Virus record (IMG/VR): IMGVR_UViG_3300050016_000116
Location: 35,645 to 99,644 of that record
Strand: one strand, 5' to 3'
DNA: 64,000 nucleotides
Source: a virus
Below the pieces are notes generated by a model. The model did not search any database and was not told the origin of the DNA. It worked only from the letters and a program-made list of their open reading frames with translations. This document shows positions 1 through 64,000 of this stretch, piece after piece; within the stretch, counting starts at the first letter, position 1; every line of letters starts with the position of its first letter. The position numbers and the translations under genes are program-made.

Positions 1-45
1 TGGGGTGAAGGTTCGTGGTAGGTTCTCGGTTCTCTGGAGGCGCAC

Positions 46-741
46 ATGAGGAAGAGGGAAGAGAAGAAGGTCACGGAAGGACCGAGGTTCACGGGAGCCC
101 TTCCCACGCTCACGGCGCTCCCGGTCGTGAAGCCGAATACGTGGAACCCGTTCGCGATGACCCCCTTCATGCGGGAGTCTCTCAAGCACGGGCTCCAGAC
201 GGATGGGTGGCTCTCTTCCCAATCACTTCTCATCTGGGCGTCTGACGAGAAGGGGAAGAGCAAGAACATCATCATCGACGGTGAGCACCGCTGGACGGTG
301 GCTCTGGAGCTGGGCTTCAAGGAAGGTCCGATGGTCTTCCTGCATAAGATCACCGAGGCCGAGGCGAAGAAGCTCACTGCGGCGCTGAACAACAAGCACG
401 GGCGTCCGGACGATGACAAGATGGGTGCTCTGCTCCGCTCCATCCAGTCCGAGGAGGCACCGACTTCGCTGGACGTCGGTATCGAGAATGACCAGCTGAT
501 GAAGCTCCTCGCAGAGCCCAAGATCCCGATGAAGGATCCGGACGGACCGGGTGCCAACGGGAAGCCGGAGTCCCACGATCCTCTCCCTGCGTCCAACGCG
601 AGGATGGTGCAGCTCTACTTCGTGAAGGAGACCCACGAGGAGTTCACGAAGCTCACGCGTGCGCTCGCAGAGAGGTACAACGTGAAGAACACAACCGACG
701 CTGTTCTCGAAGCGTGCCGCCAGGCTTACAAGAAGAAGTAG
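46..741 (+). CDS. ParB-like N-terminal domain protein with a possible C-terminal ribbon-helix-helix; likely partner of the TET/JBP dioxygenase
   Basis: NTWNP...IIIDGEHRW ParB/Srx motif; GGAGG RBS upstream; C-terminus MVQLYF (strand) followed by two helices; directly upstream of the TET/JBP gene. Confidence 0.8.
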   Translation: MRKREEKKVTEGPRFTGALPTLTALPVVKPNTWNPFAMTPFMRESLKHGLQTDGWLSSQSLLIWASDEKGKSKNIIIDGEHRWTVALELGFKEGPMVFLHKITEAEAKKLTAALNNKHGRPDDDKMGALLRSIQSEEAPTSLDVGIENDQLMKLLAEPKIPMKDPDGPGANGKPESHDPLPASNARMVQLYFVKETHEEFTKLTRALAERYNVKNTTDAVLEACRQAYKKK

Positions 742-745
742 CCAC

Positions 746-1621
746 GTGCTCGTCCAGCTTCGCTCCCAGGCTTCCGCAGACGAGGTCAAGAAGCTCATCG
801 CTTCCCGACCCGCACCCGAGCACGCGTCCCTCTTCCTCACGCAAGAGGCGACGATCTACAAGCCGAACGGGGACCGACTTCTGACGCTCGTGCGAGGGGG
901 CATCTCCGAGAAGACCGCGGAGAGAGCGCGACCCTTCTATCACTCCCTCCACACTGTCATGACTCGCAATCGCGGTGCCTACGCTGGCGCCAGAAGGGCT
1001 CGCCCGGTCAGGAGCAACGGTACCCTGTCCAACACCTTTGAGACCGTCCCGGTGCGTTCCTGCATCCTCGGAGCTATGGATCGCTACCCTCGCAATCCCT
1101 TCTGCCGGCAGGCAGCGATCGTCGGGCAAGATCCTGAGGGATGGGAGATCGGACAGGAGCTTGTGCGGGAGGTCTCAGACGTCTTCAAGAGCCACTACCC
1201 CGAGCGGTTCCTCATCCAGCAGGCAATCGCAGAGACCACCCACAAGGACTACATCATCAAGGGCACCCCCTTCACGACCATCACCGTGAACAACACGGTT
1301 CCTGCGGCCTATCACCGCGACGCTGGCGACTTCAAGCCGGGCTTCGGGGTCATGACGGTTCTTCGGCGTGGCATCTACCGAGGGTGTGAGTTGGTCCTCC
1401 CTGCGTTCGGCGTGGCAGTCGACCTCCAGGACCGGGACGTCATCCTGTTCGATGTCCACGAGGTCCACGCCAATCTCCCTTTCATCGCGACGCAGGGGAA
1501 AGAGGTGGAGGATTGGGAAAGGATTAGCATAGTAGCGTATTATAGAGAACGAATGATAGATTGCCTTCCACCTCGGGAAGAGGTTGAGAGGGCGAATAAT
1601 CTACATGGGACGGTTCGATGA
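746..1621 (+). CDS. 2OG-Fe(II) dioxygenase, TET/JBP family (5-methylpyrimidine dioxygenase)
   Basis: TPFTTITVN, HxD (YHRDAGD), distal His (VHANLP), RISIVAYYR 2OG-binding Arg motif. Confidence 0.85.
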   Translation: MLVQLRSQASADEVKKLIASRPAPEHASLFLTQEATIYKPNGDRLLTLVRGGISEKTAERARPFYHSLHTVMTRNRGAYAGARRARPVRSNGTLSNTFETVPVRSCILGAMDRYPRNPFCRQAAIVGQDPEGWEIGQELVREVSDVFKSHYPERFLIQQAIAETTHKDYIIKGTPFTTITVNNTVPAAYHRDAGDFKPGFGVMTVLRRGIYRGCELVLPAFGVAVDLQDRDVILFDVHEVHANLPFIATQGKEVEDWERISIVAYYRERMIDCLPPREEVERANNLHGTVR

Positions 1622-1662
1622 TCCCGCTGAGTTTTGGAGGAACGTAAAGAAGCGGTCTGGAA

Positions 1663-2583
1663 GTGATGAGACAACGGCCATTCTTGGGTGCATCTGGGTC
1701 GTTAGATGACGACTTCAAGACGTTCGCCAAGGCGCAGATCAAGACAGGAGACCTTGACCCGACCTACTGGCTCCTGAAGCGAGCCTACGCGCGGGAAGGT
1801 CTTACGAAGGACATCGCTCTCTGGCGCACGCTTCTCTACGTGACTTGGTACCACCTCGGGTCATCGGAGAAGATGTGGACCCTTTTCCGATTCCCTCAGA
1901 AGATCCGTGAGCAGTTCGTGAAGGGACTCTCCACGGGAACGGAGCGAAGAGGGTTCAGGGGGAACGTCAACGCGGCTGCGTTCATCAACGACGTCCTGAA
2001 CCGTGCTGCTACTTGCGGGGGAACTCTTCACGGGTGGATTGAACGAGTCGCAGGAGGGCACCTCTGGGCTTTTGGATGGAACAACATTCAGGTTGAGCTG
2101 ATGATGGTGAAGAACGCAGGACCGTGGGCGAGCTACAAGTGGGCTGACCTTCTCAAGAACGTTCACAACTACGACATCACTGCGCCCGATCTCGGAGTCG
2201 GAGGAGGGAGCGCGACAGCGGGACCTATCCCGGGGATGGTTCGGCTCACTGGCAAGGACTGGAAGCAGTGCGCAACGGACATAGGACTTCAGTGCGCGCT
2301 TCTCGATCGCTACGTGGCGGAGGGTGTTCCCTTCTCGGGTCTCGACCAGTTGGAGACGGCGCTCTGCGACTTCAACTCGCTCTGCAAGGGCGGGTACTAC
2401 GTGGGGCACGACATCGACGGGATGATGAGTAATCTGCCTCCGAACAGTCCTCTCTGGCTCTCCCGAGACGTCTTCACCGAGTCAGTGCGCGGTGAGCGCC
2501 AAGGGTGGAACGGGGTTCGGAAGGAGCGGAAGAGCGTCTACAAGAACACGGGGCGAATCATCCTCCCTTGGGAGCAGATGTGA
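1663..2583 (+). CDS. Amino acid:DNA transferase (aGPT-Pplase2/AADT family)
   Basis: GDLDPTY, TGTERRGFRG, GPWASYKWADL and ETALCDF...YYVGHDI motifs typical of this glycosylase-fold family; gene context. Confidence 0.8.
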   Translation: MMRQRPFLGASGSLDDDFKTFAKAQIKTGDLDPTYWLLKRAYAREGLTKDIALWRTLLYVTWYHLGSSEKMWTLFRFPQKIREQFVKGLSTGTERRGFRGNVNAAAFINDVLNRAATCGGTLHGWIERVAGGHLWAFGWNNIQVELMMVKNAGPWASYKWADLLKNVHNYDITAPDLGVGGGSATAGPIPGMVRLTGKDWKQCATDIGLQCALLDRYVAEGVPFSGLDQLETALCDFNSLCKGGYYVGHDIDGMMSNLPPNSPLWLSRDVFTESVRGERQGWNGVRKERKSVYKNTGRIILPWEQM

Positions 2584-3473
2584 TTCACCTTCAGGGCATG
2601 GGGGTAGTCGGTTCCCTTCTCGCGTGGCAGCTCCTCCAGCGGAAGGTTCCCTTCACGTGGAACGATGCAGAGACCAACATCAACGCGTGGAGCGCCAGCA
2701 CGGGCTGTATCTATCCTTCGGGAGACCCACTCGACACCATTGCCTACAACGTCTGGAAGAATTGGGTAGCCAGTCCTCCGTGGAGGGTACCCGGGATGGT
2801 CGAGACGTCGGGCTACTGGTTCTGCACGAAGTCAGCTCCCAACGGGTTGAAGGGCGGGATCGAGGCTCAGGTGGGACCTCTCCGGCGCTCCACCTTCCCT
2901 GCGATGAACTTCAACGCGCAGGCGTTCGTGGCCATGACCAGGAAGATGTTCGCGATGAAGCGGCTCACGTACTCAGCACCACGCGCAAAGAAGGTCGTGG
3001 TCACGCACGGATTCGGGGAGCGGCTTCACCACTACGTCTGGGGTTGGCATCGGAAGGTGAGGCTTCGCTTCCACGAGGACTTGGTCAACGCGGAGTTCTG
3101 CAAGCGCATGACCATCTCCCTCACGCGCGGGCGGTTCGTCATGGCGTACGCCTATCCCATGCCTGGCTATCCTGAGTGGTACTACGCGGGTTCTGACCGG
3201 GTGGTGCAGAAGACCGCCAAGGAGCTTGAGGTGCTCCCGAAGTATGAGGCGTGGCGCCGCAACTTCACGTCACTCTCGGGTGGGTTGATCGAGATCATGG
3301 AGGAGGGGGGAATCGCGCAGGGGTGGAGACCCGCAGGTCGTCCTGACGATGATGCGATGGTCATGGAACTCACTGGACGGTTCGGGTCAGTGTTGGTCAA
3401 GCCTCAACGAGGGAACGGGGTTCGGCACGCTCCTCTGGTCTGTCGAGCGGTGATGACAGCGTTGGGCTTCTGA
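2580..3473 (+). CDS. FAD-dependent oxidoreductase/lyase (DAAO/glycine oxidase-like), putative base-modification enzyme
   Basis: GTG start at 2580 overlapping the upstream stop (GTGA), with GGAG RBS; N-terminal GMGVVG Rossmann motif; C-terminal GWRP...GNGVRHAP. Confidence 0.75.
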   Translation: MIHLQGMGVVGSLLAWQLLQRKVPFTWNDAETNINAWSASTGCIYPSGDPLDTIAYNVWKNWVASPPWRVPGMVETSGYWFCTKSAPNGLKGGIEAQVGPLRRSTFPAMNFNAQAFVAMTRKMFAMKRLTYSAPRAKKVVVTHGFGERLHHYVWGWHRKVRLRFHEDLVNAEFCKRMTISLTRGRFVMAYAYPMPGYPEWYYAGSDRVVQKTAKELEVLPKYEAWRRNFTSLSGGLIEIMEEGGIAQGWRPAGRPDDDAMVMELTGRFGSVLVKPQRGNGVRHAPLVCRAVMTALGF

Positions 3474-3488
3474 CGGCACTCTCGGGGG

Positions 3489-4013
3489 ATGAACATGATC
3501 CTCTACGTTGTCGGTGCGCCTGGATGCGGGAAGACCACCCTGGTTCGTCGACTCCTGGAAGCGGACAACTACTTCAACGTTCGACCGAAGTGGACGATCG
3601 GGAACGGGCAGAAGGTCTGCGCAGCGGGGCACTATACGGGTGGAACGTTTGATGGAGCCGACACGGTTCCGTACAACGGGTTTCAGCTGGCGCTCGACTT
3701 CTGGAAGGCGAACCTCATCAACTTCGAGCTGACGATCTTCGATGGGGATCGCTTCAGCGACAAGCGCACGATCGAGTTCTTCCAGTCTCAACCCGTCCAC
3801 CAGCGGGTGATTCACTGCATCGCATCTGCGCAGCTCCTCGCAGAGCGCCGGCAGGAGCGAGGTTCGACTCAGAACCCCTCGTGGATGAAGGGACGGGAGA
3901 CGAAGTCTGAGCGCTTTGCCACTGACCTCTTCTCACCCGAGGACAACCGACTCATTCTCCAGATGCACGAGAAGCCGGAGAACTTGGAGCGGAAGGTGCG
4001 GAAGTGGCTCTGA
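3489..4013 (+). CDS. P-loop nucleotide kinase associated with base hypermodification (candidate 5-hydroxymethylpyrimidine kinase)
   Basis: Walker A GAPGCGKTT, GHYTGGTFDGADTV, IFDGDRF; clustered with the AADT gene. Confidence 0.7.
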   Translation: MNMILYVVGAPGCGKTTLVRRLLEADNYFNVRPKWTIGNGQKVCAAGHYTGGTFDGADTVPYNGFQLALDFWKANLINFELTIFDGDRFSDKRTIEFFQSQPVHQRVIHCIASAQLLAERRQERGSTQNPSWMKGRETKSERFATDLFSPEDNRLILQMHEKPENLERKVRKWL

Positions 4014-4417
4014 CCCCTTTCGCCCGATGGTGGCGGAAGGTCCGAGAATCACTTCAGGCGCGGTACTACGAGGGGCCACACCCTCCACGCAGGCTCAATG
4101 AGATCGTCCTAGCGTTTGCCAACGAGCACCCCGCAGCCACACGTCTGGAGTGGGTGACGTTCGCGATCGAGCACGCACGGGAGACCTACCGAACGGGATG
4201 GGTGCGGGGAATGGAGTACACCGAGCGGTCTCCCGAGGAGCGCACGGCAATTCGCACCGCCGATCCCGATGCAGCCGCGGACATGCTTGATCCGGACTGG
4301 AAGTGGCAGCCAGCGATCAACCTGGAGTACGACCCTCACGCGGTCCCCATTGCGCAGCCAGGGGAACGTGAAGCGATCGAGAGAATGTTCACGAAACCGA
4401 AGGAGAAGAAGACATGA
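4004..4417 (+). CDS. Hypothetical protein
   Basis: Overlaps neighbours in an operon-like way; core codon usage. Confidence 0.6.
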   Translation: MALTPFARWWRKVRESLQARYYEGPHPPRRLNEIVLAFANEHPAATRLEWVTFAIEHARETYRTGWVRGMEYTERSPEERTAIRTADPDAAADMLDPDWKWQPAINLEYDPHAVPIAQPGEREAIERMFTKPKEKKT

Positions 4418-4842
4418 CCGAAGAGACGAAGTGGGATCCGCAGTCGCTCCTGGGCAAGTTCGTGCTCTATGTGCCGGCGAAGTTCATCGGGAGGGTCACC
4501 GACTTCTTCGATGGGACTACGAAGAAGTTCACTTCCCCCATCAACAACCAGCAAGTGAAGGGTCCTGTTCTCCAGATCGATGGGCAGCACCATCTCGTCG
4601 CAGTCGAGTCCTCGTTCATCGAGCTTCAGGAGGGGGAGGCAGCGTTCTTCGCTGCGGTCCAGCAGGCGCTCACCGGAGCGCTCGCAGAGGTCGTGAAGAT
4701 CGGGGCGGAGATGAAGATCCCCCCTCCGACCCTCGCACTCCTCCTCGTAGCCACACTGCGGACGCAGGGCATGGCTTTGGAGGCATTCCACAAGAACGAT
4801 CTCCCCCAGCAGGCACCTCCCGAGACGGCATTCCAGGGGTAA
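4414..4842 (+). CDS. Hypothetical protein
   Basis: ATGA overlap with the upstream gene; RBS-like AAGGAG. Confidence 0.65.
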   Translation: MTEETKWDPQSLLGKFVLYVPAKFIGRVTDFFDGTTKKFTSPINNQQVKGPVLQIDGQHHLVAVESSFIELQEGEAAFFAAVQQALTGALAEVVKIGAEMKIPPPTLALLLVATLRTQGMALEAFHKNDLPQQAPPETAFQG

Positions 4843-4849
4843 GGCGCGA

Positions 4850-4869
4850 TTCGAAAAGCGCTTTTCGAA
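4850..4869. repeat. Dispersed 20-bp perfect palindrome TTCGAAAAGCGCTTTTCGAA (first copy)
   Basis: Exact copies start at 4850, 12155, 15491, 17820, 29770, 34472, 43277, 46468, 52278 and 62447; variants at 17635, 20186 and 24029. Confidence 0.97.
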
Positions 4870-4881
4870 TGGAGACCGACC

Positions 4882-5130
4882 ATGGCAGACCTTCCCCCGC
4901 AGAACCCAGGCTTGACCTCCAACGCGGCTCACAACGCGGCTGCTGCGCTCGTGGAGATGTACCGGGGCATCCTCGTGGACAACGAGCGGGAGAAGCAACT
5001 GCTGCGGATCCGGTTGCTGCGTCTGGAGGACGAGATCAAGAACATCAGGACTCTCTACGCGAACGTGGTGGGTGTGCAGCCGAAGGTGAGTGTCGCTGAC
5101 CCGCTACCCGAGGAACCGGAGCACGACTGA
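4882..5130 (+). CDS. Hypothetical coiled-coil protein
   Basis: GGAG RBS; heptad-like LLRIRLLRLEDEIKNI. Confidence 0.6.
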   Translation: MADLPPQNPGLTSNAAHNAAAALVEMYRGILVDNEREKQLLRIRLLRLEDEIKNIRTLYANVVGVQPKVSVADPLPEEPEHD

Positions 5131-5489
5131 TGCGCGGCTTCCTCTCCAAGACGTTCCAGGAACAGCTCCGGGTCTTCGACCAGGAGAAGGGGATCGATCA
5201 TCGCCTGGACTTCTGGGTGGAGCAGTTCGGGGGTGGAGCCGGGGCTTGGCTCCTCTGGAACTATCGCAAGCAGATCCACAACGCGGGTGCGGTCGACTTC
5301 CAGATCCCCAGGGAGATCCCCACACCTAACTGGATGCGAGTTGCACTTGAGGCGATCAAGAGACTCCCTTACTGGTCCGTGAATATCGTTGGAGGAACGA
5401 AGGACCCCATGAGGCGCTTCCGAGTTCGCTGGCATCGTCACGGTCACTTCAAACGCAAGCCGTCCCTACCCCCGGAGCAACTCTCATGA
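5130..5489 (+). CDS. Hypothetical protein
   Basis: TGATG coupling upstream and ATGA coupling to thyX. Confidence 0.6.
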   Translation: MRGFLSKTFQEQLRVFDQEKGIDHRLDFWVEQFGGGAGAWLLWNYRKQIHNAGAVDFQIPREIPTPNWMRVALEAIKRLPYWSVNIVGGTKDPMRRFRVRWHRHGHFKRKPSLPPEQLS

Positions 5490-7087
5490 CAATGGTGAAT
5501 TATTCGGTTCTTGATCACGGCTACTTGGGACTAGTGGAGAGCTGGGGGAGTGACGAGCGCATCGTGGAGGCGGCGCGCATGTCGACGGGCAAGGGTTTCC
5601 TAGGGTGGGGGCCGAGCACCGTTTGCCAGTGTGGTCGGGAGGTCACTGAAGCCAACGCGCTTGATCATCGCGAGTGCGGCTCACCCACGAAGTTCACGAC
5701 GAGCCCCGGTGACGAGAAGCTCCTTCGCTACCTCTGGGAGAACAAGCACGCGACGCCATTCGAGATGGCGGGGATGACGATCGAGGTGCAGGCGCCCATC
5801 TTCGTCTTCCGGGAGTGGCACCGGCACCGAACGCAATGCCTCGTCGGCGAGACGATGATCGCTTGCGTCTCGCCGAATGGCACGACCTATCAGCGCAGCA
5901 TCAAGAACATCTTCGACCTCAAGTACGGTGGTGTCGAAGACACGCAACCGCGAACGAGGAACGGGACGAGCCGGGGTGGCACGCCCGTCAGACGAGAGGC
6001 GCGGCGGGTGGTCCCGTGGCGCAAGCGTGTTCTGCCCAACTGCCAGGCGCGCGCTCTCCGCGTGCTCAACGAGACGACGGGAGAGTTCGAGACAGCGCCG
6101 ATGGCCGACGTTTGGGAGTCGGGCACGAAGCCCGTCTTCTGCGTGAAGACTGAGACCGGGCGCACCGTCGAGGCGAGCGCTGAGCACCCGTTCTTCACGC
6201 GCGACGGCTGGAAGAAGCTCAAGGAGCTTCGCGTCGGCGATTCGCTTGCTCGCATCGGCGTCGTCGCTACGCGTGAGCGACCGCTCCCTCCGGCGCTCCG
6301 GGCCGGCATCGGCGTGTGGACATCGATGATGAGGGCTCGCCTCATTCGGCAGCCGACGGACTTTTGTTATCTCTGCGAGACGGAGTTCAAGTTCTCGATC
6401 CTCGAACTCGACCACGTCGTGCCGGTGTCGGCGGACCTGTTGCGGGCGCTCGACGCGACGAACCTCCGCCCCATCTGCCCGCGATGCCACAAGAACAAGA
6501 GCGCTGCGGAGCAGCCCTCACGGGAGGGGATGACTCGCCGAGGCGTACGGTGGGAGCGCGTCGTCGAGGTCCGCGAAGTCGGCGACGCGCCTACCTACGA
6601 CATCGAGGTCGACGGGCCGCACCACAACTTCGTCGCCAACGGGCTAGTGGTCCACAACAGCTACAACGAGATGAGCAGTCGCTACATGCCGCTACCGGAC
6701 GTGAACTACATCCCGAGTGTTGAGAGGTTGATGCTCAATTCGAAGACGAACAAGCAGGCGGGGACGGTAAAGGGCTCGGAGGAGATGACTGAGCCGAAGG
6801 CTGGGGCGGTGCGTCATGCGCTGTCGCTCCTCTACGGGGACCAGCAGCGTGCATATGAGGAGTTCCTCAAGTGGGGCGTCCCGAAGGAGCTAGCCCGCGT
6901 CCACCTTCCCGTGGGTCGCTACTCGCGGATGCGCGCGAGCGCGAACCTGCGCAACTGGCTCGCGTTCCTCACGCTCCGGATGGACGAGAAAGCTCAGTGG
7001 GAGATCCGTCAGTACGCGAATGTAGTGGGGGAGATCATCTCTGCACAATTCCCGCGTACGTGGGCACTCTTCTCTGAGAAGCGCTGA
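5486..7087 (+). CDS. thyX: FAD-dependent thymidylate synthase ThyX containing an intein
   Basis: HATPFE and APIFVFREWHRHR; after splicing RHRTQ-SYNEMSSRY restores the RHRx7S signature; GVPKELAR, NLRNWLAFLTLR, AQWEIR. Confidence 0.95.
   Translation: MTMVNYSVLDHGYLGLVESWGSDERIVEAARMSTGKGFLGWGPSTVCQCGREVTEANALDHRECGSPTKFTTSPGDEKLLRYLWENKHATPFEMAGMTIEVQAPIFVFREWHRHRTQCLVGETMIACVSPNGTTYQRSIKNIFDLKYGGVEDTQPRTRNGTSRGGTPVRREARRVVPWRKRVLPNCQARALRVLNETTGEFETAPMADVWESGTKPVFCVKTETGRTVEASAEHPFFTRDGWKKLKELRVGDSLARIGVVATRERPLPPALRAGIGVWTSMMRARLIRQPTDFCYLCETEFKFSILELDHVVPVSADLLRALDATNLRPICPRCHKNKSAAEQPSREGMTRRGVRWERVVEVREVGDAPTYDIEVDGPHHNFVANGLVVHNSYNEMSSRYMPLPDVNYIPSVERLMLNSKTNKQAGTVKGSEEMTEPKAGAVRHALSLLYGDQQRAYEEFLKWGVPKELARVHLPVGRYSRMRASANLRNWLAFLTLRMDEKAQWEIRQYANVVGEIISAQFPRTWALFSEKR
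5837..6658 (+). mobile_element. Intein (274 aa) with an HNH endonuclease domain
   Basis: Starts CLVGET, block B ASAEHPFFT, ends HNFVANGLVVHN followed by Ser+1; internal CYLC...LDHVVP...NLRPICPRCHKNK. Confidence 0.93.
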
Positions 7088-7893
7088 TGCGCGAGGTCAT
7101 CATTGTTCCCCCAGAGAACTCGGCGCGAAAGGGGCGATCGTTCCGCGCAGTCTGTCTTGCGACGATTGAAGCGGACACACTCTGGGGGGAGACCATCACT
7201 GACGACACGCGCCCGGTGCTTGCGGTGTTCGCGGGTTCGGACCAGGAGATGCGTCCCTTCCAGGCGAACCTGCGAATGGGGAGGAAGGCGAACATCATCA
7301 ACGCGGGCAGGAACTCCTACCGGAAGAAGACAGACCGGATGGAGTTCCTGCGGTCAGTCGATTACGAGTACACGTGGCAGCGGGAAGCAGAGGGATCGAT
7401 CCTCACCGTGCGGCTCTCGGAGCTATTCATGCTCGACCCGGGGATGGTCGACCCATGGGGCGCCAAGTTCATCGTCCTCCCCTCCTCCACGTGGGCAGCA
7501 GAGCAGACGATCGATCCCACTCCCGCGGTGATGCACGTGCGAGGTCTTGGGTTCAAGGGTATCGAGCATGAACAGCTCACTGCTCTCGTGCCTCTTGCCG
7601 CTCTCTTCGCGGTATATCTCGACCGGCGCACGCGTTGTCCAATCGTCATGGACGAACGGTTCTACCTCCAGCTCTTCTGCGCCAGTCTCGGGCAAGGACT
7701 CGCATCGTTCGCGTGGGACGGGAGGTACAGCGAGGACTTCGGGGTGAACAAGTCGTTCAAGTTCTCGCAGGACACGGACGACGTTGGGTGCTTCGCGAAG
7801 GGTGTCGCGTTCAAGGCGAACCACGAGCAGATTGAGACCCTTCTCGCAGAGCAAACCACCTACTTCTTCGAGGCTACTCATGGCGCGTCCTGA
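7087..7893 (+). CDS. Hypothetical protein, coupled to the methylase-helicase gene
   Basis: TGATG coupling; 268-aa ORF with core codon usage. Confidence 0.7.
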   Translation: MREVIIVPPENSARKGRSFRAVCLATIEADTLWGETITDDTRPVLAVFAGSDQEMRPFQANLRMGRKANIINAGRNSYRKKTDRMEFLRSVDYEYTWQREAEGSILTVRLSELFMLDPGMVDPWGAKFIVLPSSTWAAEQTIDPTPAVMHVRGLGFKGIEHEQLTALVPLAALFAVYLDRRTRCPIVMDERFYLQLFCASLGQGLASFAWDGRYSEDFGVNKSFKFSQDTDDVGCFAKGVAFKANHEQIETLLAEQTTYFFEATHGAS

Positions 7894-10800
7894 ATCGCAG
7901 GCATTTGCCGGGTTCTTCCCGACACCACTGCATCTCCTCCCGCGCATCGCACGTCTGCTCTCTCCCAGGAGAGAGGAAGGTGCTGAGACATCGATTCTTG
8001 ATCCCTGCGCGGGGGAGGGTCATGCGGTCGTGGAGCTGGCGAAGTACCTCTGCAAGCGCAGTCCGAACATCTTCGTGTGTGAGATGGAGTTCACGCGCTA
8101 CGAAGCGCTTGAGAAGACACTCAGAGGAGTCGGGTGCTGGAAGAACGTTCTCCACGGAGACGCATTCCGGGTCACGTTCAAGAAGGGGAGCAATGAGGGG
8201 GTCTCTGTTCTCTACCTGAACCCTCCCTACGACACGCACCCGGTCTACGGACGGTTGGAGCACAAGTTCCTGGAGAGGTTCACCGACACCCTCAAGGATG
8301 GTGGGATTCTCTTCTACGTGGTTCCGTACTACTCCCTCAAGGCATCGGCGGACTTCTTCGCCTCACGATTCTCTGAGCTGCACTGCTACAAGTTCCCGGG
8401 CTCCGACTTTGAGGCGTTCAAGCAAGTTGTCTTGGTCGGGCAGAAGGGAAGTGGACTATTCGGGGAGAGCAACAAGAAGCTGCGCCAAGACGTGCTCACG
8501 TGGGCGGAGGACCCGGAGCGAATCCAGAAGCTCCCAGCGATCCCGGAGCCGCTCTGGGAGGTCCCTTCTTCCCCGCGGTACCACGATGGGTTGGAGGAGT
8601 GGATCATCCGCCCGGTCGACATCACGGCGCTCACGAAGAAGGTGCGCCCATGGATGCAGTCAGCTCGGAATGGAGCGCTCATCCCCATCCCGGGGATCGT
8701 TCCCGATCTCCCGGTCCAAGAGATGCTCCTGCGCCAGTACCCCGTAGCGACCCCTCCTAGACCCGCGCACATCGCGGCAGGCATCGCATCAGGCATCTTC
8801 AACGGAGCCCGTCTGAAGCCATCCTACCGCGAAAGAAGGGCACTCCCGGCTCTCCTCGTGAAGGGGTGCTTTGACAAGGAGTACCGGACGGTGGAGGAGA
8901 AGAAGGACAAGAACGGGAACACCAAGGGTCTCGTTCAGGTTCAGCAGCCGAAGCTGGTCACCACCGTGCTCGACCTCTCAACGTTCCGCTACCACGTGCT
9001 CAAGAGTGGTGTGGAGCCCTGTAAGGGTATCCCCAAGGTCGAGACGATGAGCGTGGCAGACCTCATCGAGCACTATGGGGACTCGATGACGGGGGTGATG
9101 GGGGTGCAGTGCCCGGTGCTCTACGACCCGAGAAGGGACGCGGACTCCATCCCCATCCCGGAGACACCCAGGAAGCTCTTCAACGCCCAAGCGCACGCGG
9201 TTCGAGCGCTGGTGAAGCTTCTCGGAGGACCATCATCGACGAAGAGGAAGCGAAGGGGGAAGGCAGCGATCCTCCTGGGGGAGATTGGGGTAGGCAAGAG
9301 CACGGTCGCAGCAATGGCAGCAGAGACCATCAAGGCGAAGCGCATCCTCATCATGTGCCCACCTCACCTCTTGACCTCGTGGACGAACGAGTGCGCGGCA
9401 GTGCTCCCGCACGCAGAGGTGGTCGTCCTCAACAATGTGGAGGACGTGGACGCGCTCGTTTCGAGGAAGCAGCGGAGGGGGACGACCAAGCGCACGATCG
9501 TCACGCTCCTCACACGCGAGACAGCGAAGCTATCGCACTCCCGGGAAGGAGTTGGGGGAACTTGCCCGAAGTGCGGGTCATCCCTTCCCTTCGACCCCGA
9601 GGATCTTGCGAAGAAGCGGGAGCGCTGCGAGCACATCCCCAAGACACCCTCCAACAAGCTCGCAGAGATCTCCATCCGACTTGGCTATCGGCTCCTCCCG
9701 TTCTCGGGGGACGTGGCTGCATACTTCGGTGGGTTCTTCGACAAGCAGCGCGCGAATGCCTACGACTCGATGGAGAAGCGGCCGCAATTCCGAGGGCTCA
9801 CCCTCGGGGAGCTGGATGACGCGCTCGTGGAGCTTCTCATGCTTCTCCCGCAGTCTCTCGACAGCGAGACGCGTACCAAGGTCGAGAATGCGATCGTGGT
9901 CATCCTCCATGCAGCGGGAGACGAGGAGCGCACGTTGAAGACAGCGGCAATCGTCGCTGCGAACAACAACTCATGGACCCACTTCGAGCAGGACTTGCTC
10001 CTCTTGCTTCCTCCTGGCGATCCGCGGGTAGCGCAGTTCATCAAGGAAGTGAAGGAAGCTGAGAAGCCCAAGAGCTACGGCGGTGACGTTTGGCACGCGT
10101 TCGAACAGCGAGTGCAGGATTCGAAGGAGGGGAAGGCAAAGGCAGGTTCGATCGATGTCTCCTGGGCATCGGGGGAGCTGATGCTGCACTCGAAGTGCAA
10201 GCGCGGGTCTCTCGAAGCAGCACGTGCAGCGTTCATTGGGATTCGGGTTTTCTCCACCTTCGAGGATGGTGAGCCGTGCGGGGAGTTCCTCTTCCAGGCA
10301 GTTCCGACCCCGAGACGTGTTGCGCTCTCTTCCTACATCACGAAGTACCACCCGGAGCTGTTCGACTTCCTCGTGCTCGACGAAGGACACGAGTACAGCT
10401 CTGACTCCAGCGCGCAGAGCTTCGCTGCCCACCGTCTCACCGCACTCGGGCTCCCCACGATCTTGATGACCGGGACGATCATGAACGGGTACGCAGAGAG
10501 CTTGTTCACGAACCTCTGGGCGCTCTCCCCCGCGTTTCGTTCGGAGTTCGATCGCAACGAGCGCCAGCGGTTCATCGACCGCTACGGGTATCGCAAGCGA
10601 ATCGTGGAGGACCGGGACAAGGAGACCAAACAAGTGGTCGAGTTCGGTTCGCAGTCGGATCGAGTGGTCCGCTCAGAGCGGGTTGTCGGCAATGCTCCCG
10701 GGCTCCTCCCGCTCTTCCTCCTGCGCCACCTTCTCCCCATCTCCGTCACGCTCCACAAGACGGACTTGGCGATCGATCTCCCTCCCCTGCGTCAGGAGAG

Positions 10801-11614
10801 GTTCCGCGTGAAGCCGACAATCAAGCAGCACCAGTTCTACGACCAGCTCAAGGATGCTCTGGTGACGCAGATCAAGGCAGACCGTTACGTGGAAGGACTT
10901 GCGGGGAAGCTCTGGGGTCAGCTTGCAGAGCTACCGTCCTACTTGGACCGGGCGCACGAGGGGTTTGAGATTCGCTACCCGGAGTCGGTGGGTGGAGCCA
11001 TTGTGGCAAGCGTTCCCCCTCTCCCGCTCACCCCCGTGCTCCCAAAGGAGCGATGGATCCTCGACAAGGTGCAGAGCGAGCTGGACGAGGGAAGGAACGT
11101 GATGGTGTTCTCTTGGCACCTCTCGCTCCTCCCGCGACTTCAGCGGCTCATCTCCGAACACATCGGGGAGGACGTTCCTATCCTCTTCGCGGACAAGGTC
11201 CCGACAGCGAAGCGCCAGGATTGGATCGATCGCGAGGTCATCCGGAAGGGAGCGCGGGTGATGTGCGCGAACCCTGTCGCTATCCAGACGGGGCTCAACA
11301 ACTTGGTCTACTTCGCCACGGAGATCTGGCACGAGAACCCGGCGTGCAACCCCATCACCTACCGCCAAGCGGTCGGGCGGGTGGATCGTATCGGGCAGAA
11401 GAAGGACACACGGATCTTCTTCCCGATCTACGAGGAGACACTCCAGGAAGCGCTCTACGACCTCCTGATGAAGAAGGTCGCTGTTTCCGTCAGCACGGAT
11501 GGACTAGATCCCGAGTCAGCACTTCAGGCAGCGGGAGCCGGAGAGGACGAGTACATGATGGGTCTGTCGATTGGTCGGCAGCTCTGGAAGATGATGAACG
11601 AAGAGGCAGCATGA
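7880..11614 (+). CDS. Adenine methyltransferase (DUF6094-like) fused to an SF2/SNF2-like helicase
   Basis: Probable start MARPESQAFAGFFPTP at 7880; DPCAGEG, LYLNPPY; helicase motifs GEIGVGKS, LDEGH, MTGT, QAVGRVDRIGQ. Confidence 0.88.
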   Translation: MARPESQAFAGFFPTPLHLLPRIARLLSPRREEGAETSILDPCAGEGHAVVELAKYLCKRSPNIFVCEMEFTRYEALEKTLRGVGCWKNVLHGDAFRVTFKKGSNEGVSVLYLNPPYDTHPVYGRLEHKFLERFTDTLKDGGILFYVVPYYSLKASADFFASRFSELHCYKFPGSDFEAFKQVVLVGQKGSGLFGESNKKLRQDVLTWAEDPERIQKLPAIPEPLWEVPSSPRYHDGLEEWIIRPVDITALTKKVRPWMQSARNGALIPIPGIVPDLPVQEMLLRQYPVATPPRPAHIAAGIASGIFNGARLKPSYRERRALPALLVKGCFDKEYRTVEEKKDKNGNTKGLVQVQQPKLVTTVLDLSTFRYHVLKSGVEPCKGIPKVETMSVADLIEHYGDSMTGVMGVQCPVLYDPRRDADSIPIPETPRKLFNAQAHAVRALVKLLGGPSSTKRKRRGKAAILLGEIGVGKSTVAAMAAETIKAKRILIMCPPHLLTSWTNECAAVLPHAEVVVLNNVEDVDALVSRKQRRGTTKRTIVTLLTRETAKLSHSREGVGGTCPKCGSSLPFDPEDLAKKRERCEHIPKTPSNKLAEISIRLGYRLLPFSGDVAAYFGGFFDKQRANAYDSMEKRPQFRGLTLGELDDALVELLMLLPQSLDSETRTKVENAIVVILHAAGDEERTLKTAAIVAANNNSWTHFEQDLLLLLPPGDPRVAQFIKEVKEAEKPKSYGGDVWHAFEQRVQDSKEGKAKAGSIDVSWASGELMLHSKCKRGSLEAARAAFIGIRVFSTFEDGEPCGEFLFQAVPTPRRVALSSYITKYHPELFDFLVLDEGHEYSSDSSAQSFAAHRLTALGLPTILMTGTIMNGYAESLFTNLWALSPAFRSEFDRNERQRFIDRYGYRKRIVEDRDKETKQVVEFGSQSDRVVRSERVVGNAPGLLPLFLLRHLLPISVTLHKTDLAIDLPPLRQERFRVKPTIKQHQFYDQLKDALVTQIKADRYVEGLAGKLWGQLAELPSYLDRAHEGFEIRYPESVGGAIVASVPPLPLTPVLPKERWILDKVQSELDEGRNVMVFSWHLSLLPRLQRLISEHIGEDVPILFADKVPTAKRQDWIDREVIRKGARVMCANPVAIQTGLNNLVYFATEIWHENPACNPITYRQAVGRVDRIGQKKDTRIFFPIYEETLQEALYDLLMKKVAVSVSTDGLDPESALQAAGAGEDEYMMGLSIGRQLWKMMNEEAA

Positions 11615-15490: not shown

Positions 15491-15544
15491 TTCGAAAAGC
15501 GCTTTTCGAAAGGACGGCACTCGGGTGGGTAGGAGGATTCCCTC

Positions 15545-35285: not shown

Positions 35286-35762
35286 ATGATGACCCTTCAT
35301 GCTGCCTTGGTTGCCTACGTTCTGACCGCCATGTGCTCTTGGTTGCCGATGCGCCACTGGCAGACGCTCGACTACCAGATCATCGCAGAGGCGAGCGTCA
35401 CGGCTGCTTCAGAGGATCCCGAGGACGCCATTCAACTCGTCGCTATTGCGTCCTTCGAGAGTCGGTTCGCAGTCACCGCACACGGCAAGCTCGGGGAGAT
35501 CGGCGCGTTCCAACTTCGTCCCTTCTTCACCAAGCCAGCGTCTTGTGCGCCTTGGTCCGAGCACCCGATGACAACCTGCACCCCGACCGAGCAAGCGCGC
35601 ATGGCGCTCTACCGATGGAAGACGATGGGACGGTGTTCGTACACGGGGGAAGCGCCAGCGTCAGAGTGTCCTTTCGCAGACCACCGCTACCTGCGTGCGT
35701 TCGACTACAGCTATGCCCATCCCTTCGTTCCTCCGAGTCAAGAGGTGGTCGCGGCTCGATGA
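35286..35762 (+). CDS. Lysozyme-like/lytic transglycosylase with an N-terminal hydrophobic segment
   Basis: LVAIASFESRF...GEIGAFQL. Confidence 0.65.
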   Translation: MMTLHAALVAYVLTAMCSWLPMRHWQTLDYQIIAEASVTAASEDPEDAIQLVAIASFESRFAVTAHGKLGEIGAFQLRPFFTKPASCAPWSEHPMTTCTPTEQARMALYRWKTMGRCSYTGEAPASECPFADHRYLRAFDYSYAHPFVPPSQEVVAAR

Positions 35763-55529: not shown

Positions 55530-58115
55530 ATGAGTGGAGCGAGCTACACCCGTAGGTTCCTGTTCGACCCGGGTAACAACGTTCTGCTGAACATCGAGTC
55601 GATCAACATCCTCGATCTTACCCCGCCCGCGTCCATCGCCGGCATTGCCTCGGGGACAGTGCTCCTTGTGGGGGAGTTCGAAGATGGGCCCTACAACTCT
55701 CCGCTTCAGGTGAACGGGGCCACGGATCTCCTGACCCAGATGGGAGGCTTTGGCTTCTCCTACGGGGGTCTCTCGGGACAGTACCCGTGTGCCGTCGCGC
55801 GCTACGCGGACGGGGCGGTGTTGCCGGAATACTGGAACGGCAACGCGATGATCCAGATGAACGGGAACCAATTCGGGGCTCTCGTGGTCTGTCGCCCGAA
55901 CACAAGCGTGGGCAGCGTCACGCTCACGTCTTGCGCCTACCTCACGGGCGCATCCACGTTCCGGTACCTGCTCACCGCGGGTCAGGTGCTCGGTCTCGAC
56001 GTCGGAGCTGGTCCGCAGACAGCGACGTTTTCCGCCACCGCAGCCGTCACGACGTCGGCAGCGCAGACCTTCCCCGATGGGTTCGTGGGAGGGGAGACTC
56101 TCACCCTCGGGTACGACCAGGCATCCAACTTCCTGGTCACGTTTCTTCCCGGGGACACGACGCAGGCAGCGGTCATTGCGCGCATCAACCTGTTCGCTGG
56201 GTTCGCATTCGCAGCTTCCTCCTCCGGAACCGTGATGACACTCACGGGACTTCAGCTCGGCAATCAGGCGCAGGTTCGCGTGGTCGCAGCGAGCGCGGGT
56301 GGCGTGCTCACGCAGCTCGGTCTGACAGTCGGGACAAGTTTCGGCACCGGCAACGTCGCCAACATCACCGCGGTGACTCCTCAGGAGGTCTCCGCGGTCG
56401 TGCAGACCGCAATTGCTAACACCCGTGTCGAGCTGGACCAGAACGGTGCTCTGCGCATCTCCAACTCCCTCGGCACGCTCAGCTCCTACGTCTTCATCAC
56501 CGCTGCCACGACGGCCACGGGACTCGGGTTCGCACCCGGGCAGATGGGGACTAACCTCGGACTCGCAGGAGTGCTCAGCGGAGCTGGCACGTACGTCATC
56601 GTGACGGCTGGCACGTTCACGATGCAGATCGACCCGGGCAACCCTCTCGGGGTGAACGGAGGTCTGCCCTTCACGGTCACTCTCGCGGGTGGTGAGTCGA
56701 TCGGGCAGACGGTCACGAAGATCAACACGGCTGCCGGCACCACGGTCGCGTACGCAGACAGCACGGTCCGCATCGCGATCATCGGGAAGACCCCCGGGGG
56801 TTCGGTCAACTTCATTTCCGCGTCCACCGCAGCCGTGGTCACGCAGATGGGATTCTCGTTCGGCGTCACGGTCGGTGCTCCGTACCCCCAGGGCTCCATC
56901 CCTGCTGGGACCGTCGTGCAGAATGCAGGCGCCACCGCGGTCTACGTCACCACGCAGTCTGTCTCCTTCGGTCCTACGGGCGTGACGATTGCGGGTGCAT
57001 CCGCAGCGCTCCTCGGTCCGTGGTCGGTGCCCGTGCGCTTCGCGAACGACAACGGGGTGGGAGCTTCGCAGTTGGGAGGCGCGATCACCGTCCTCCCGGT
57101 TCCCCCGCTCATCGTCAGCCTGAACGTCGTCAACCCAGCAGGGCTGACTGCGGCGCTCACCGATGCCCAGATCGATGCGGCCTACGTGAACGCAATCGCG
57201 ACCACGGTGAACACGAACTCCGTGGCAGCGCAGGCCAACATCTCCTTCTCCGCTCGCCAGTCGAATACCGTGCGCGCGGCGATGAAGAACAACGCGCTCA
57301 TCGCATCGGCCAACGGGTGCTTCGGGCGCGTCACGTGCATTCGTCCTCCCCTCGGGACCACGGAAGCCGACGCGTTCAACAACGGTGCTTCCCCGGGTGT
57401 CGGTGCAACGCGCGACCAGCGGGTCATCTACTGCTGGCCGGGGCGTTCCACCTTCGTCCCGATCATCGCTCAGATCGGCACGCAGGGAGGGGCGGGGTTC
57501 ACCGCCAGCGGGAACATAGACGCGGGCTCTGACGGGCTCATGGCGTCCGTGCTCTCGCAGCTCCCTCCCGAGGAGAACCCGGGGCAGGAGACCGCGTTCA
57601 CGGGCGGCACCATCGGGCTGGAGAGTTCCCCCAACGCGCAGGGGCTCCAGATCGGGGACTACATAGCCGGCAAGGCTGCCGGGGTCGCGATGCTCCGGGT
57701 GGACTCGAACGGAGTCGTCATCTTCCAGAGCGGTGTCACGAGCGTCAACCCACTCATCTACCCGTCCCTCTGCCGCATCTCTCGTCGGCGCATGGCCGAC
57801 TTCATCCAGGACAGCATCGCGCTCATCTGTTCTTCCTACGGGAAGAAGCTCAACACCGCCGCGCGTCGCAATGCGCTGACGAGCGAGATCCGTTCCTTCC
57901 TCGATCAGCTCCTCTCCGTGAACAACCCGGGGTCGCAGCGCATCGGCGGGTACTCGGTCGACCCGGTCAGTGGGAACACTCCGGTCACCCTCGGCATGGG
58001 GATGTTCCGCATCATCGTCAACGTCCTCACCCTCTCGTCTCTCGACTCCATCGTCATCCAGACGGAGATCGGTGACGAGGTCTCTGTCACCGAGCAGCTT
58101 CCCCAGGCGGCGTGA
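55530..58115 (+). CDS. Contractile tail sheath protein (861 aa, with inserted domains)
   Basis: LVGEFEDGP.N.P, C-terminal IFQSGVT...RISRRRMADFIQDSI; upstream of the tube gene. Confidence 0.88.
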   Translation: MSGASYTRRFLFDPGNNVLLNIESINILDLTPPASIAGIASGTVLLVGEFEDGPYNSPLQVNGATDLLTQMGGFGFSYGGLSGQYPCAVARYADGAVLPEYWNGNAMIQMNGNQFGALVVCRPNTSVGSVTLTSCAYLTGASTFRYLLTAGQVLGLDVGAGPQTATFSATAAVTTSAAQTFPDGFVGGETLTLGYDQASNFLVTFLPGDTTQAAVIARINLFAGFAFAASSSGTVMTLTGLQLGNQAQVRVVAASAGGVLTQLGLTVGTSFGTGNVANITAVTPQEVSAVVQTAIANTRVELDQNGALRISNSLGTLSSYVFITAATTATGLGFAPGQMGTNLGLAGVLSGAGTYVIVTAGTFTMQIDPGNPLGVNGGLPFTVTLAGGESIGQTVTKINTAAGTTVAYADSTVRIAIIGKTPGGSVNFISASTAAVVTQMGFSFGVTVGAPYPQGSIPAGTVVQNAGATAVYVTTQSVSFGPTGVTIAGASAALLGPWSVPVRFANDNGVGASQLGGAITVLPVPPLIVSLNVVNPAGLTAALTDAQIDAAYVNAIATTVNTNSVAAQANISFSARQSNTVRAAMKNNALIASANGCFGRVTCIRPPLGTTEADAFNNGASPGVGATRDQRVIYCWPGRSTFVPIIAQIGTQGGAGFTASGNIDAGSDGLMASVLSQLPPEENPGQETAFTGGTIGLESSPNAQGLQIGDYIAGKAAGVAMLRVDSNGVVIFQSGVTSVNPLIYPSLCRISRRRMADFIQDSIALICSSYGKKLNTAARRNALTSEIRSFLDQLLSVNNPGSQRIGGYSVDPVSGNTPVTLGMGMFRIIVNVLTLSSLDSIVIQTEIGDEVSVTEQLPQAA

Positions 58116-63718: not shown

Positions 63719-64000
63719 TCAGGTTTCTTCGAGGAGTTCTATGAGCTTGTTTGACATCCGAATATAGGCCACACTCCACGCCACACTCCACGCCGCACTC
63801 CACGCCGCACTCGCCGCACTCCTCGCCGCACTCCTCGCCGCACTCGCCGCACTCCACGCCGCACTCGCCGCACACGCCGCACTCGCCGCACTCCTCGCCG
63901 CACTCGCCGCACTCGCCGCACTCGCCGCACTCGCCGCACTCCTCGCCGCACTCGCCGCACTCGCCGCACTCGCCGCCGCACTCTCATCAACTTTCTCTCC
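63719..64000 (-). CDS. 3' end of an SAA/SAAW-repeat phage protein (starts beyond the window; absent from the ORF track)
   Basis: Reads GEKVDESAAASAASAA...SAAWSAAWSVAWSVAYIRMSNKLIELLEET*. Confidence 0.75.
   Translation of the reverse strand, partial: GEKVDESAAASAASAASAARSAASAASAASAASAARSAASAACAASAAWSAASAARSAARSAASAAWSAAWSVAWSVAYIRMSNKLIELLEET
63769..63982. repeat. Tandem 9/12-bp repeats (CCGCACTCG, CCGCACTCCTCG, CCGCACTCCACG)
   Basis: Directly visible; unit lengths are multiples of 3. Confidence 0.95.

Follow-up and report, generated by a model that had tools for sequence, protein, structure and literature searches.

The question raised by the locus described here is whether a virus can build a hypermodified thymine entirely after replication, using as its starting material the ordinary thymine (T) that is already part of the DNA. 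Post-replicative thymine hypermodification shields phage DNA against restriction, and it could also give sequence-selective, epigenetic-like marks; the front end of such a route, a ParB-like protein acting together with a T-dioxygenase, has just been demonstrated, but no thymine pathway that starts with Tet has been taken by reconstitution all the way to the final base. The locus is found in a stretch of 64,000 nucleotides (nt), hereafter called the window, which spans positions 35645–99644 of the 99,644-bp IMG/VR record IMGVR_UViG_3300050016_000116, the genome of a phage from peat soil with a CheckV completeness of 100%. Five genes, numbered here g1 to g5, run head to tail on the + strand of the window from 46 to 4013 with intergenic distances of -4 to 41 nt, and all five are present as a preliminary description of this DNA had reported them. 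They encode a ParB-like protein, a Tet/JBP-family dioxygenase, an amino acid:DNA transferase (AADT), a flavoprotein, and a P-loop kinase. We propose, with moderate confidence, that they form an operon for fully post-replicative thymine hypermodification, which follows a glycine-type route and plausibly ends in 5-aminomethyluracil.

The entry into the pathway would be provided by the first two genes. The product of g2 (746–1621, +), 291 amino acids (aa) long, is a Tet/JBP-family Fe(II)/2-oxoglutarate dioxygenase (5mYOX) that matches Pfam Tet_JBP with 81.6 bits (cut-off 34.9, E 4.9e-23). Its iron ligands H190-x-D192 and H241, and likewise R259, the arginine that binds 2-oxoglutarate, do not vary in 43 homologues, and the protein closes with a tail of 18 residues past the nearly invariant C273, including a conserved P-x-EE-x-x-RA stretch. 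On these features g2 is presumed to be a dioxygenase that acts on DNA and converts thymine to 5-hydroxymethyluracil (5hmU). Elsewhere, the Tet/JBP homologues of the cultured phages S-CBWM1, Cr30, DLP_6, and HTVC112P carry the label “SNF2 DNA repair protein” or are called a DnaJ chaperone, which are probably annotation errors hiding dioxygenases.

Only 4 nt separate the end of g1 (46–741, +; 231 aa) from the start of g2. This protein has no Pfam match at E 0.01 and is recognized as ParB-like from PHROG 723 (2.8e-16) and from its predicted fold, while PF02195 is present in about 20 of 98 g1 homologues. The AlphaFold2 (AF2) model, with a mean confidence (pLDDT) of 89, has a ParB/Srx nucleotide-binding fold made of strands and helices at residues 20–115, followed by short helices at 123–155 (about 35 residues), a linker at 173–184 with pLDDT below 50, and a two-helix C-terminal domain at 194–230; its best Foldseek matches are Noc, the ParB proteins of M. 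xanthus (MxParB) and C. crescentus (CcParB), and KorB. By analogy with the published ParB-dependent enzymes, g1 is presumed to be the activator of the dioxygenase g2.

The genes for the following steps include a transferase and a kinase. The former, g3 (1663–2583, +; 306 aa), is an AADT, a family formerly named aGPT-Pplase2, and it passes Pfam ADDT (PF18724) marginally (27.5 bits, cut-off 26.2) and matches PHROG 6364 at 1.1e-21. Ten of the 12 active-site residues of the transferase gp46/PUGT of phage PaMx11 are kept: D32, Y59, Y63, E94, and W155 of g3 correspond to gp46 D24, Y47, Y51, E92, and W146, and K159, E231, T232, C235, and D250 to K150, E243, T244, C247, and D262. The protein thus retains the proposed nucleophile Cys (C235), the metal-binding pair E231/T232, and the glycine-holding residues D32/W155/K159. 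Among all 26 aligned members of the g3 family no variation is seen at the Cys, Glu, Asp, Trp, and Lys, and T or S occurs where g3 has its Thr. The kinase g5 (3489–4013, +; 174 aa) matches Pfam Ploopntkinase3 (36.9 bits, cut-off 27, E 3.4e-9), has the Walker A motif GAPGCGKT, and shares a BLAST cluster with kinases of related loci in which a ThyA-like gene stands in place of Tet; from its sequence it is presumed to be a 5hmU DNA kinase. The checks with hidden Markov models (HMMs) that the preliminary description proposed for g2, g3, and g5 accordingly all gave scores above the Pfam cut-offs.

The remaining gene, g4 (2580–3473, +; 297 aa), encodes an unannotated flavoprotein and is the only step of the pathway without a characterized homologue. 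Its longest open reading frame (ORF) begins at 2505, and an alignment of 24 homologues places the start at 2580 (MIHLQG), with a 4-nt overlap with the g3 stop. The same alignment reveals a GxGxxG motif (G6, G8, and G11 conserved) followed by an invariant acidic residue, D29. The protein has no match in Pfam or PHROGs, and its profile retrieves only the Rossmann motif from the Protein Data Bank (PDB) sequences. Its nature is apparent from the AF2 model built on that alignment (pLDDT 94), which has the D-amino-acid-oxidase / GR2 fold: Foldseek matches it to D-amino acid oxidase (DAAO) at E 3e-14, and VIA gives Z 22–23 to D-amino acid oxidase, glycine oxidase, iminodiacetate oxidase, and CmiS2, and 20.4 to the oxidase domain of MnmC. 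The earlier identification as an FAD oxidoreductase is thus upheld at the level of the fold, and the DAO HMM search that should have confirmed it returned nothing. On the strength of the model, g4 is presumed to act as an oxidase in the trimming of an amino acid attached to thymine.

The g4 family extends well beyond this phage. A HMMER pass over 1.84 billion representatives collected 215 g4-family clusters, defined at 50% identity, and since 196 of them fall below 1e-30 the family is sharply bounded against other DAO-fold proteins. Nearly all members have 280–320 aa. Two natural fusions are known: P0247 (456 aa) joins g4 to a C-terminal GNAT acetyltransferase, and P0338 (643 aa) joins it to a P-loop kinase with weak 5-hmdU-kinase similarity. 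The first of these mirrors the succession found in PaMx11, where the flavoprotein gp47 (NGTO) cleaves N-alpha-glycyl-T, giving 5-aminomethyl-dU, which is next acetylated by the GNAT gp48 (PMC8989533, PMC11472151), and it suggests that g4 yields an amine that can be acetylated.

Put together, these parts suggest the following sequence of events. Replication would take place with ordinary T, as the genome has thyX and a gene for a dCMP deaminase but none for a hydroxymethylase. The dioxygenase g2, probably switched on by g1, would then hydroxylate a subset of the thymines in DNA to 5hmU, g5 would phosphorylate the hydroxymethyl group, and g3 would exchange the phosphate for a free amino acid, which is attached through its amine and is most plausibly glycine. 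Finally, g4 would oxidize the C–N bond of the appended residue; if this is N-alpha-glycyl, hydrolysis would give 5-aminomethyluracil and glyoxylate. No acetyltransferase is encoded in the genome, and the pathway would therefore end with the free amine as its final base. The ParB-dependent oxidation of T in this scheme is taken from the literature by analogy, as is the kinase, transferase, and oxidase chemistry, which is that of PaMx11; the sequence of reactions in this phage, the amino acid donated, the reaction of g4, and the final product are what we infer. Published enzymes of the g2 class modify at most about one-third of T, with sequence preference (NTR is reported for 5mYOX176; PMC13229309), so that a partial, context-dependent modification is likely here as well.

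The alternative that survives best leaves the post-replicative pathway as it is and changes the donor and the product: g3 would use an amino acid other than glycine, or an amine, and the final base would not be 5-aminomethyluracil. In that case g4 might turn the free alpha-amine of a residue linked through its side chain into a keto acid, or oxidize the thymine side to give 5-formyluracil. We regard this as unlikely, albeit a rival to be taken seriously. One argument for it is distance, because the identity of g3 to the characterized glycine and putrescine transferases is only 16–21% and the donor amino acid is for this reason not readable from its sequence. In addition, the top fold matches of g4, which also include D-aspartate oxidases, differ in their substrates and lie no more than 1 Z unit apart, and g4 is no detectable sequence homologue of NGTO. 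The preliminary description, which cited the PaMx11 flavin enzyme, needs correction at this level: an hhalign comparison of g4 with gp47 covers 33 N-terminal columns, in the Rossmann motif, with a probability of 12%, and tblastn with g4 finds no PaMx11-like phage. NGTO (8Z2O) is also missing from the 50 entries that Foldseek or VIA lists, many of which are tied, and nothing follows from this.

Against this alternative stand the glycine-contacting Asp, Trp, and Lys of gp46, kept in 26 of the 26 g3-family members, the fusion of g4 with a GNAT, which echoes the oxidase-then-acetyltransferase logic of PaMx11, and the resemblance of g4 to NGTO in compact size (297 vs 286 aa) and in position after the transferase. 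We treat g4, by analogy, as working like NGTO but as no member of the NGTO family.

The glycine-type route has to be weighed against a number of points, to which the low identity of g3 and the short g4–gp47 alignment belong. The single hint of a carboxylate-bearing donor is a weak one and comes from one comparison, W155 of g3 being a Tyr in the putrescine transferase of phiW-14. Likewise, the invariant R250 of g4 (GWRP) falls opposite R242 of gp47 (GIRP), the proposed binder of the carboxylate of the glycyl adduct (PMC11472151, PMC8989533), in a MAFFT-added alignment that is itself weak. In E. coli, little or no 5hmU was obtained with several of the ParB-associated 5mYOXs in the literature (PMC13229309), and the likeness of our locus to their clade C1, set out below, is based on described features. 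More generally, the chemistry of this phage and the function of the g4 family are predicted from genes and models.

Whether the five genes belong to one pathway can be judged from their relatives. A single g2 protein used as the query retrieved no related loci; a scan of IMG/VR with the g4 alignment succeeded instead and gave 25 related loci (counts out of 26 include the locus described here), with identities of only 31–54% across relatives. An AADT gene adjoins g4 in 26 of the 26, and a kinase of the g5 cluster is close by in 21 of the 25 relatives (22 of 26 loci), directly after g4 in most, the usual core order being AADT–g4–kinase. What varies is the front end. In 10 of the 25 records a Tet_JBP gene lies beside the core (nine above the Pfam cut-off and one below it, confirmed by phmmer), and in five of these 10 a g1-type ParB gene, found only in Tet-type records, is directly upstream of Tet. 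In 12 others a ThyA-like gene takes the place of Tet, and 10 of them have the pair HMUDK_hel–ThyA next to the core and after it (HMUDK_hel is PF18723; loci L007, L009–L011, L013–L015, L022, L024, and L025), usually followed by an HD/YfbR-like protein (5′-deoxynucleotidase), as in PaMx11. Three records lack both genes; they are fragments that are nearly identical to ThyA-type ones, and one of the three ends right after the kinase. HMUDK_hel occurs in none of the Tet-type loci, so that its companion is the pre-replicative route rather than the kinase itself.

Tet and ThyA are found together in none of the 25 records, the sole exception being an 18-bit sub-threshold Tet-like match far from the locus in G016 and G017. 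Counted as 17 lineages, they divide into seven with Tet alone and 10 with ThyA alone (Fisher p = 5e-5, without correction for phylogeny); the g4 protein tree is unresolved at its base, so that the swaps between Tet and ThyA may number anywhere from one to three or more. Such an either/or pattern is to be expected if one downstream machinery receives its 5hmU from either of two sources, Tet (with or without ParB) or the hydroxymethylase, and it supports the pathway inferred in the preliminary description. Among the relatives, a ribonucleotide reductase gene was also seen upstream of the core in several ThyA-type records, and sub-threshold GNAT-like matches lie directly downstream of the g4 homologue in L011 (15 bits; L011:9131-9433, G011 55855-56157) and, within a 449-aa ORF, in L008 (14.5 bits); these may be optional acetylation steps.

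The same comparison bears on the view that the genes are neighbors without being parts of one pathway, with the ParB protein serving in partition or packaging, g4 acting as a metabolic oxidase of free amino acids, and only some of the genes touching DNA. The ParB fold is indeed widespread in phages with other roles, and the fold family of g4 consists mostly of small-molecule oxidases. However, an AADT that adjoins g4 at every locus while the relatives diverge to 31–54% identity, the fusions of g4 to a kinase and to a GNAT, the restriction of g1-type ParB to loci with Tet, and the published activation of a neighboring dioxygenase by ParB (PMC13229309) make this view very improbable. We put forward, more tentatively than the pathway itself, that g4 founds a distinct family of DNA-acting flavin amine oxidases, which arose separately from NGTO and would complete a ParB-gated, post-replicative route to free (cationic) 5-aminomethyluracil at selected T, with a core able to take either Tet or a hydroxymethylase as its front end.

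The rest of the genome was searched for other sources of the substrate. Six-frame searches of the complete genome found no ThyA-family enzyme (PF00303, the dUMP/dCMP hydroxymethylase family) and no C5-cytosine methyltransferase (PF00145), and the complete genome likewise holds no GNAT (PF00583), no homologue of PaMx11 gp48, and no HMUDK_hel, either by an HMM of 10 HMUDK_hel proteins or by Pfam PF18723. The lack of a hydroxymethylase, a C5-methyltransferase, and an acetyltransferase that had been reported for the window therefore extends to the whole genome. A Pfam pass over 105 further ORFs identified thyX, a dCMP deaminase, PolB, DnaB, a primase, RecA, SbcCD-like proteins, and three N6_N4 methylases, and this inventory includes no GATase, radical SAM enzyme, enzyme dependent on pyridoxal phosphate (PLP), or glycosyltransferase. 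The flavin-dependent thymidylate synthase gene thyX (5486–7087, +), which had been described as making ordinary dTMP, is confirmed by a Pfam Thy1 match of 2.9e-36 and is interrupted by an intein with an HNH endonuclease (Intein_splicing 3.7e-17, HNH 4.1e-8); Thy1 matches in two stretches, the best at residues 390–523, and the Intein_splicing and HNH matches lie between about 193 and 391. In the sister phage G001 the thyX ORF has an uninterrupted length, with an open frame of 365 aa. From this enzyme inventory, the phage invests in ordinary dTMP and is without means of its own for making 5hmdUTP (the triphosphate of 5-hydroxymethyl-2′-deoxyuridine) or 5-methylcytosine (5mC).

The idea that g2 is a 5mC dioxygenase and that the cluster hypermodifies cytosine (5mC to 5-hydroxymethylcytosine and onward), like phage TET clades A and B, can draw on the facts that Tet/JBP enzymes accept either substrate, that some phage enzymes oxidize both, and that the genome has three N6_N4-type DNA methyltransferases, but it is the least credible explanation of all, since N6/N4 methylases make no 5mC, the complete genome has no C5-cytosine methyltransferase, the downstream genes are the thymidine-pathway set, and the relatives swap Tet for a ThyA-like gene that travels with HMUDK_hel and the HD protein. 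The route put forward in the preliminary description, from T to 5hmU, phosphorylation, amino-acid transfer, and trimming, finds support in the missing ThyA and C5-methyltransferase genes, the intact catalytic residues, the fold of g4, and the Tet/ThyA swap. None of the computational tests able to refute that proposal did so, and the end product remains one that we infer.

Other features of the genome complete the setting of the cluster. A copy of the motif ACGGCACTC lies at 3473–3481 (+), where it overlaps the g4 stop codon and ends 7 nt upstream of the g5 start codon. The window has seven copies, all on the + strand, vs 1.03 expected, a number that no shuffle reached, and the six further ones are at 15514, 17655, 20267, 23007, 25190, and 26244 (+). 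Its position before g5 would fit a candidate internal promoter-like signal within the cluster. The motif is seen upstream of several genes and is resembled by the unit of a tandem array, GCCGCACTC-like and with a period of about 10–12 nt, inside which both ends of the record are located (G000 1–151 and 99519–99644; window 63875–64000). The last 126 nt of the record are identical to nt 26–151, which means that the assembly wraps around; the IMG/VR label is linear. Downstream of the cluster, g6 (4004–4417, +) and g8 (5130–5489, +) are kept only in the sister phage L001. Between them, g7 (4269–5099, +) shares 149 nt with g6, is without a relative at all of the loci, receives a low recognition score from the protein atlas, and may not be a gene; it was considered as a counterpart of HMUDK_hel and rejected, as neither the HMUDK_hel HMM nor PF18723 matches the genome and g7 is without relatives. 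The region 7784–35357 of the window includes the three N6_N4 DNA methylases, a DUF6094 methyltransferase, a UPF0020 methyltransferase domain, and an SNF2-related domain, the latter probably within the 1276-aa ORF at 7784–11614; judging from these genes, the phage may carry further DNA modifications besides the thymine pathway.

The GC content is about 61%. A megablast search of window positions 1–8000 against 50,697 phage records gave no match, and at the DNA level no close cultured phage was found. Fragments 100% identical to the cluster occur in Logan contigs from a permafrost metagenome of another study and from a peat metatranscriptome library, with pieces in g1, g3, and g5; they show presence only, as contigs say nothing on transcription, and no meaning attaches to the parts left uncovered.

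The system can now be placed among those already known. With regard to the pre-replicative route of phages M6, ViI, and PaMx11, in which a dUMP hydroxymethylase supplies 5hmU, the difference is that this phage has no ThyA-family hydroxymethylase and no HMUDK_hel. The cluster for 5-AcNmdU of the Pseudomonas phage PaMx11 comprises the AADT gp46 (PUGT), the flavoprotein gp47 (NGTO), the GNAT gp48, the kinase gp49, and the ThyA-type hydroxymethylase gp51 (PMC8989533, PMC11472151). It shares with our locus the order of transferase, compact flavoprotein, and kinase (which in PaMx11 comes after the GNAT), the active site of the transferase, and the GR2/DAAO fold of two flavoproteins of about 290 aa, each with a G-x-R-P arginine, the two being tentatively matched. 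It differs in that here 5hmU would come from the oxidation of T in DNA and not from a dUMP hydroxymethylase, in that this phage is without an acetyltransferase, HMUDK_hel, and the HD protein, and in that g4 and gp47 are unalignable beyond the Rossmann motif. The base J pathway of trypanosomatids, carried out by JBP1/2, is alike in converting thymine to 5hmU in the DNA polymer after replication and in leaving the decoration to a second enzyme, whereas that decoration is a glucosylation, with no kinase, transferase, or oxidase step, in a eukaryote.

The replacement of a hydroxymethylase by Tet was previously proposed by Lee et al. 2021 (PMC8989533), who examined metavirome contigs without a hydroxymethylase in which Tet_JBP stands beside thymidine-hypermodification genes and concluded the same swap. 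The preliminary description was thus right that such neighborhoods had been predicted computationally; its further statement, that characterized phage TETs act on 5mC, has been overtaken by O’Toole et al. (preprint 2025, PNAS 2026; PMC13229309), who demonstrated phage T-dioxygenases by reconstitution and defined a ParB-dependent subclass linked to P-loop kinases and AADTs, with no flavoprotein mentioned. By its described features, our locus resembles their 5mYOX clade C1 (for example 5mYOX176/ParB176), in which Tet/JBP comes directly after a short ParB-like gene, no C5-methyltransferase is adjacent, and a P-loop kinase and an AADT are in the neighborhood. The 5mYOX-associated ParBs also share with g1 a nucleotide-binding domain, short helices, a disordered linker, and a C-terminal domain, and have no full DNA-binding domain. 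The difference lies in the flavoprotein partner found here, and the published work reconstituted nothing past 5hmU (PMC13229309).

The closest parallels in gene content are found in cultured phages. The Rhodococcus phage Tonitrus has been credited with a system of five genes for the hypermodification of thymine (PMC11955845), and both it and the Gordonia Sourvirus phages (CaiB, Wooper, MossRose, and others) share the ParB-like, Tet-like, aGPT-Pplase2, and kinase genes together with a g4 homologue, annotated in Tonitrus as “hypothetical protein”. Their proteins are 30–34% identical to g3 and g4, their clusters are at the left genome end, and in the Sourvirus phages the five genes are genes 1–5. 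As differences, the kinase precedes the g4 homologue in CaiB, where the cluster is beside the terminase, and the Tonitrus and Sourvirus hosts are Actinobacteria. No modified base was found reported for Tonitrus or the Sourvirus phages in the literature searched. Related transferases also occur in the Mycobacterium phages Phelemich and Reprobate and in the Microbacterium phage Kozie. Because cultured phages of Gordonia, Rhodococcus, Mycobacterium, and Microbacterium carry homologues, with the full five genes in those of Gordonia and Rhodococcus, the end product is directly measurable, and the enzymes are candidate tools for the site-selective chemical tagging of T in DNA.

In the light of these systems, this type of pathway is already predicted, partly demonstrated, and present in cultured phages, and the locus is a divergent case of it, which together with its relatives defines a compact and conserved five-gene version. 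What it adds to the earlier work is a picture of the g4 family in its fold, extent, and fusions, a core that is strictly coupled to one or the other of two sources of 5hmU, and a genome in which no further tailoring enzymes accompany the five genes.

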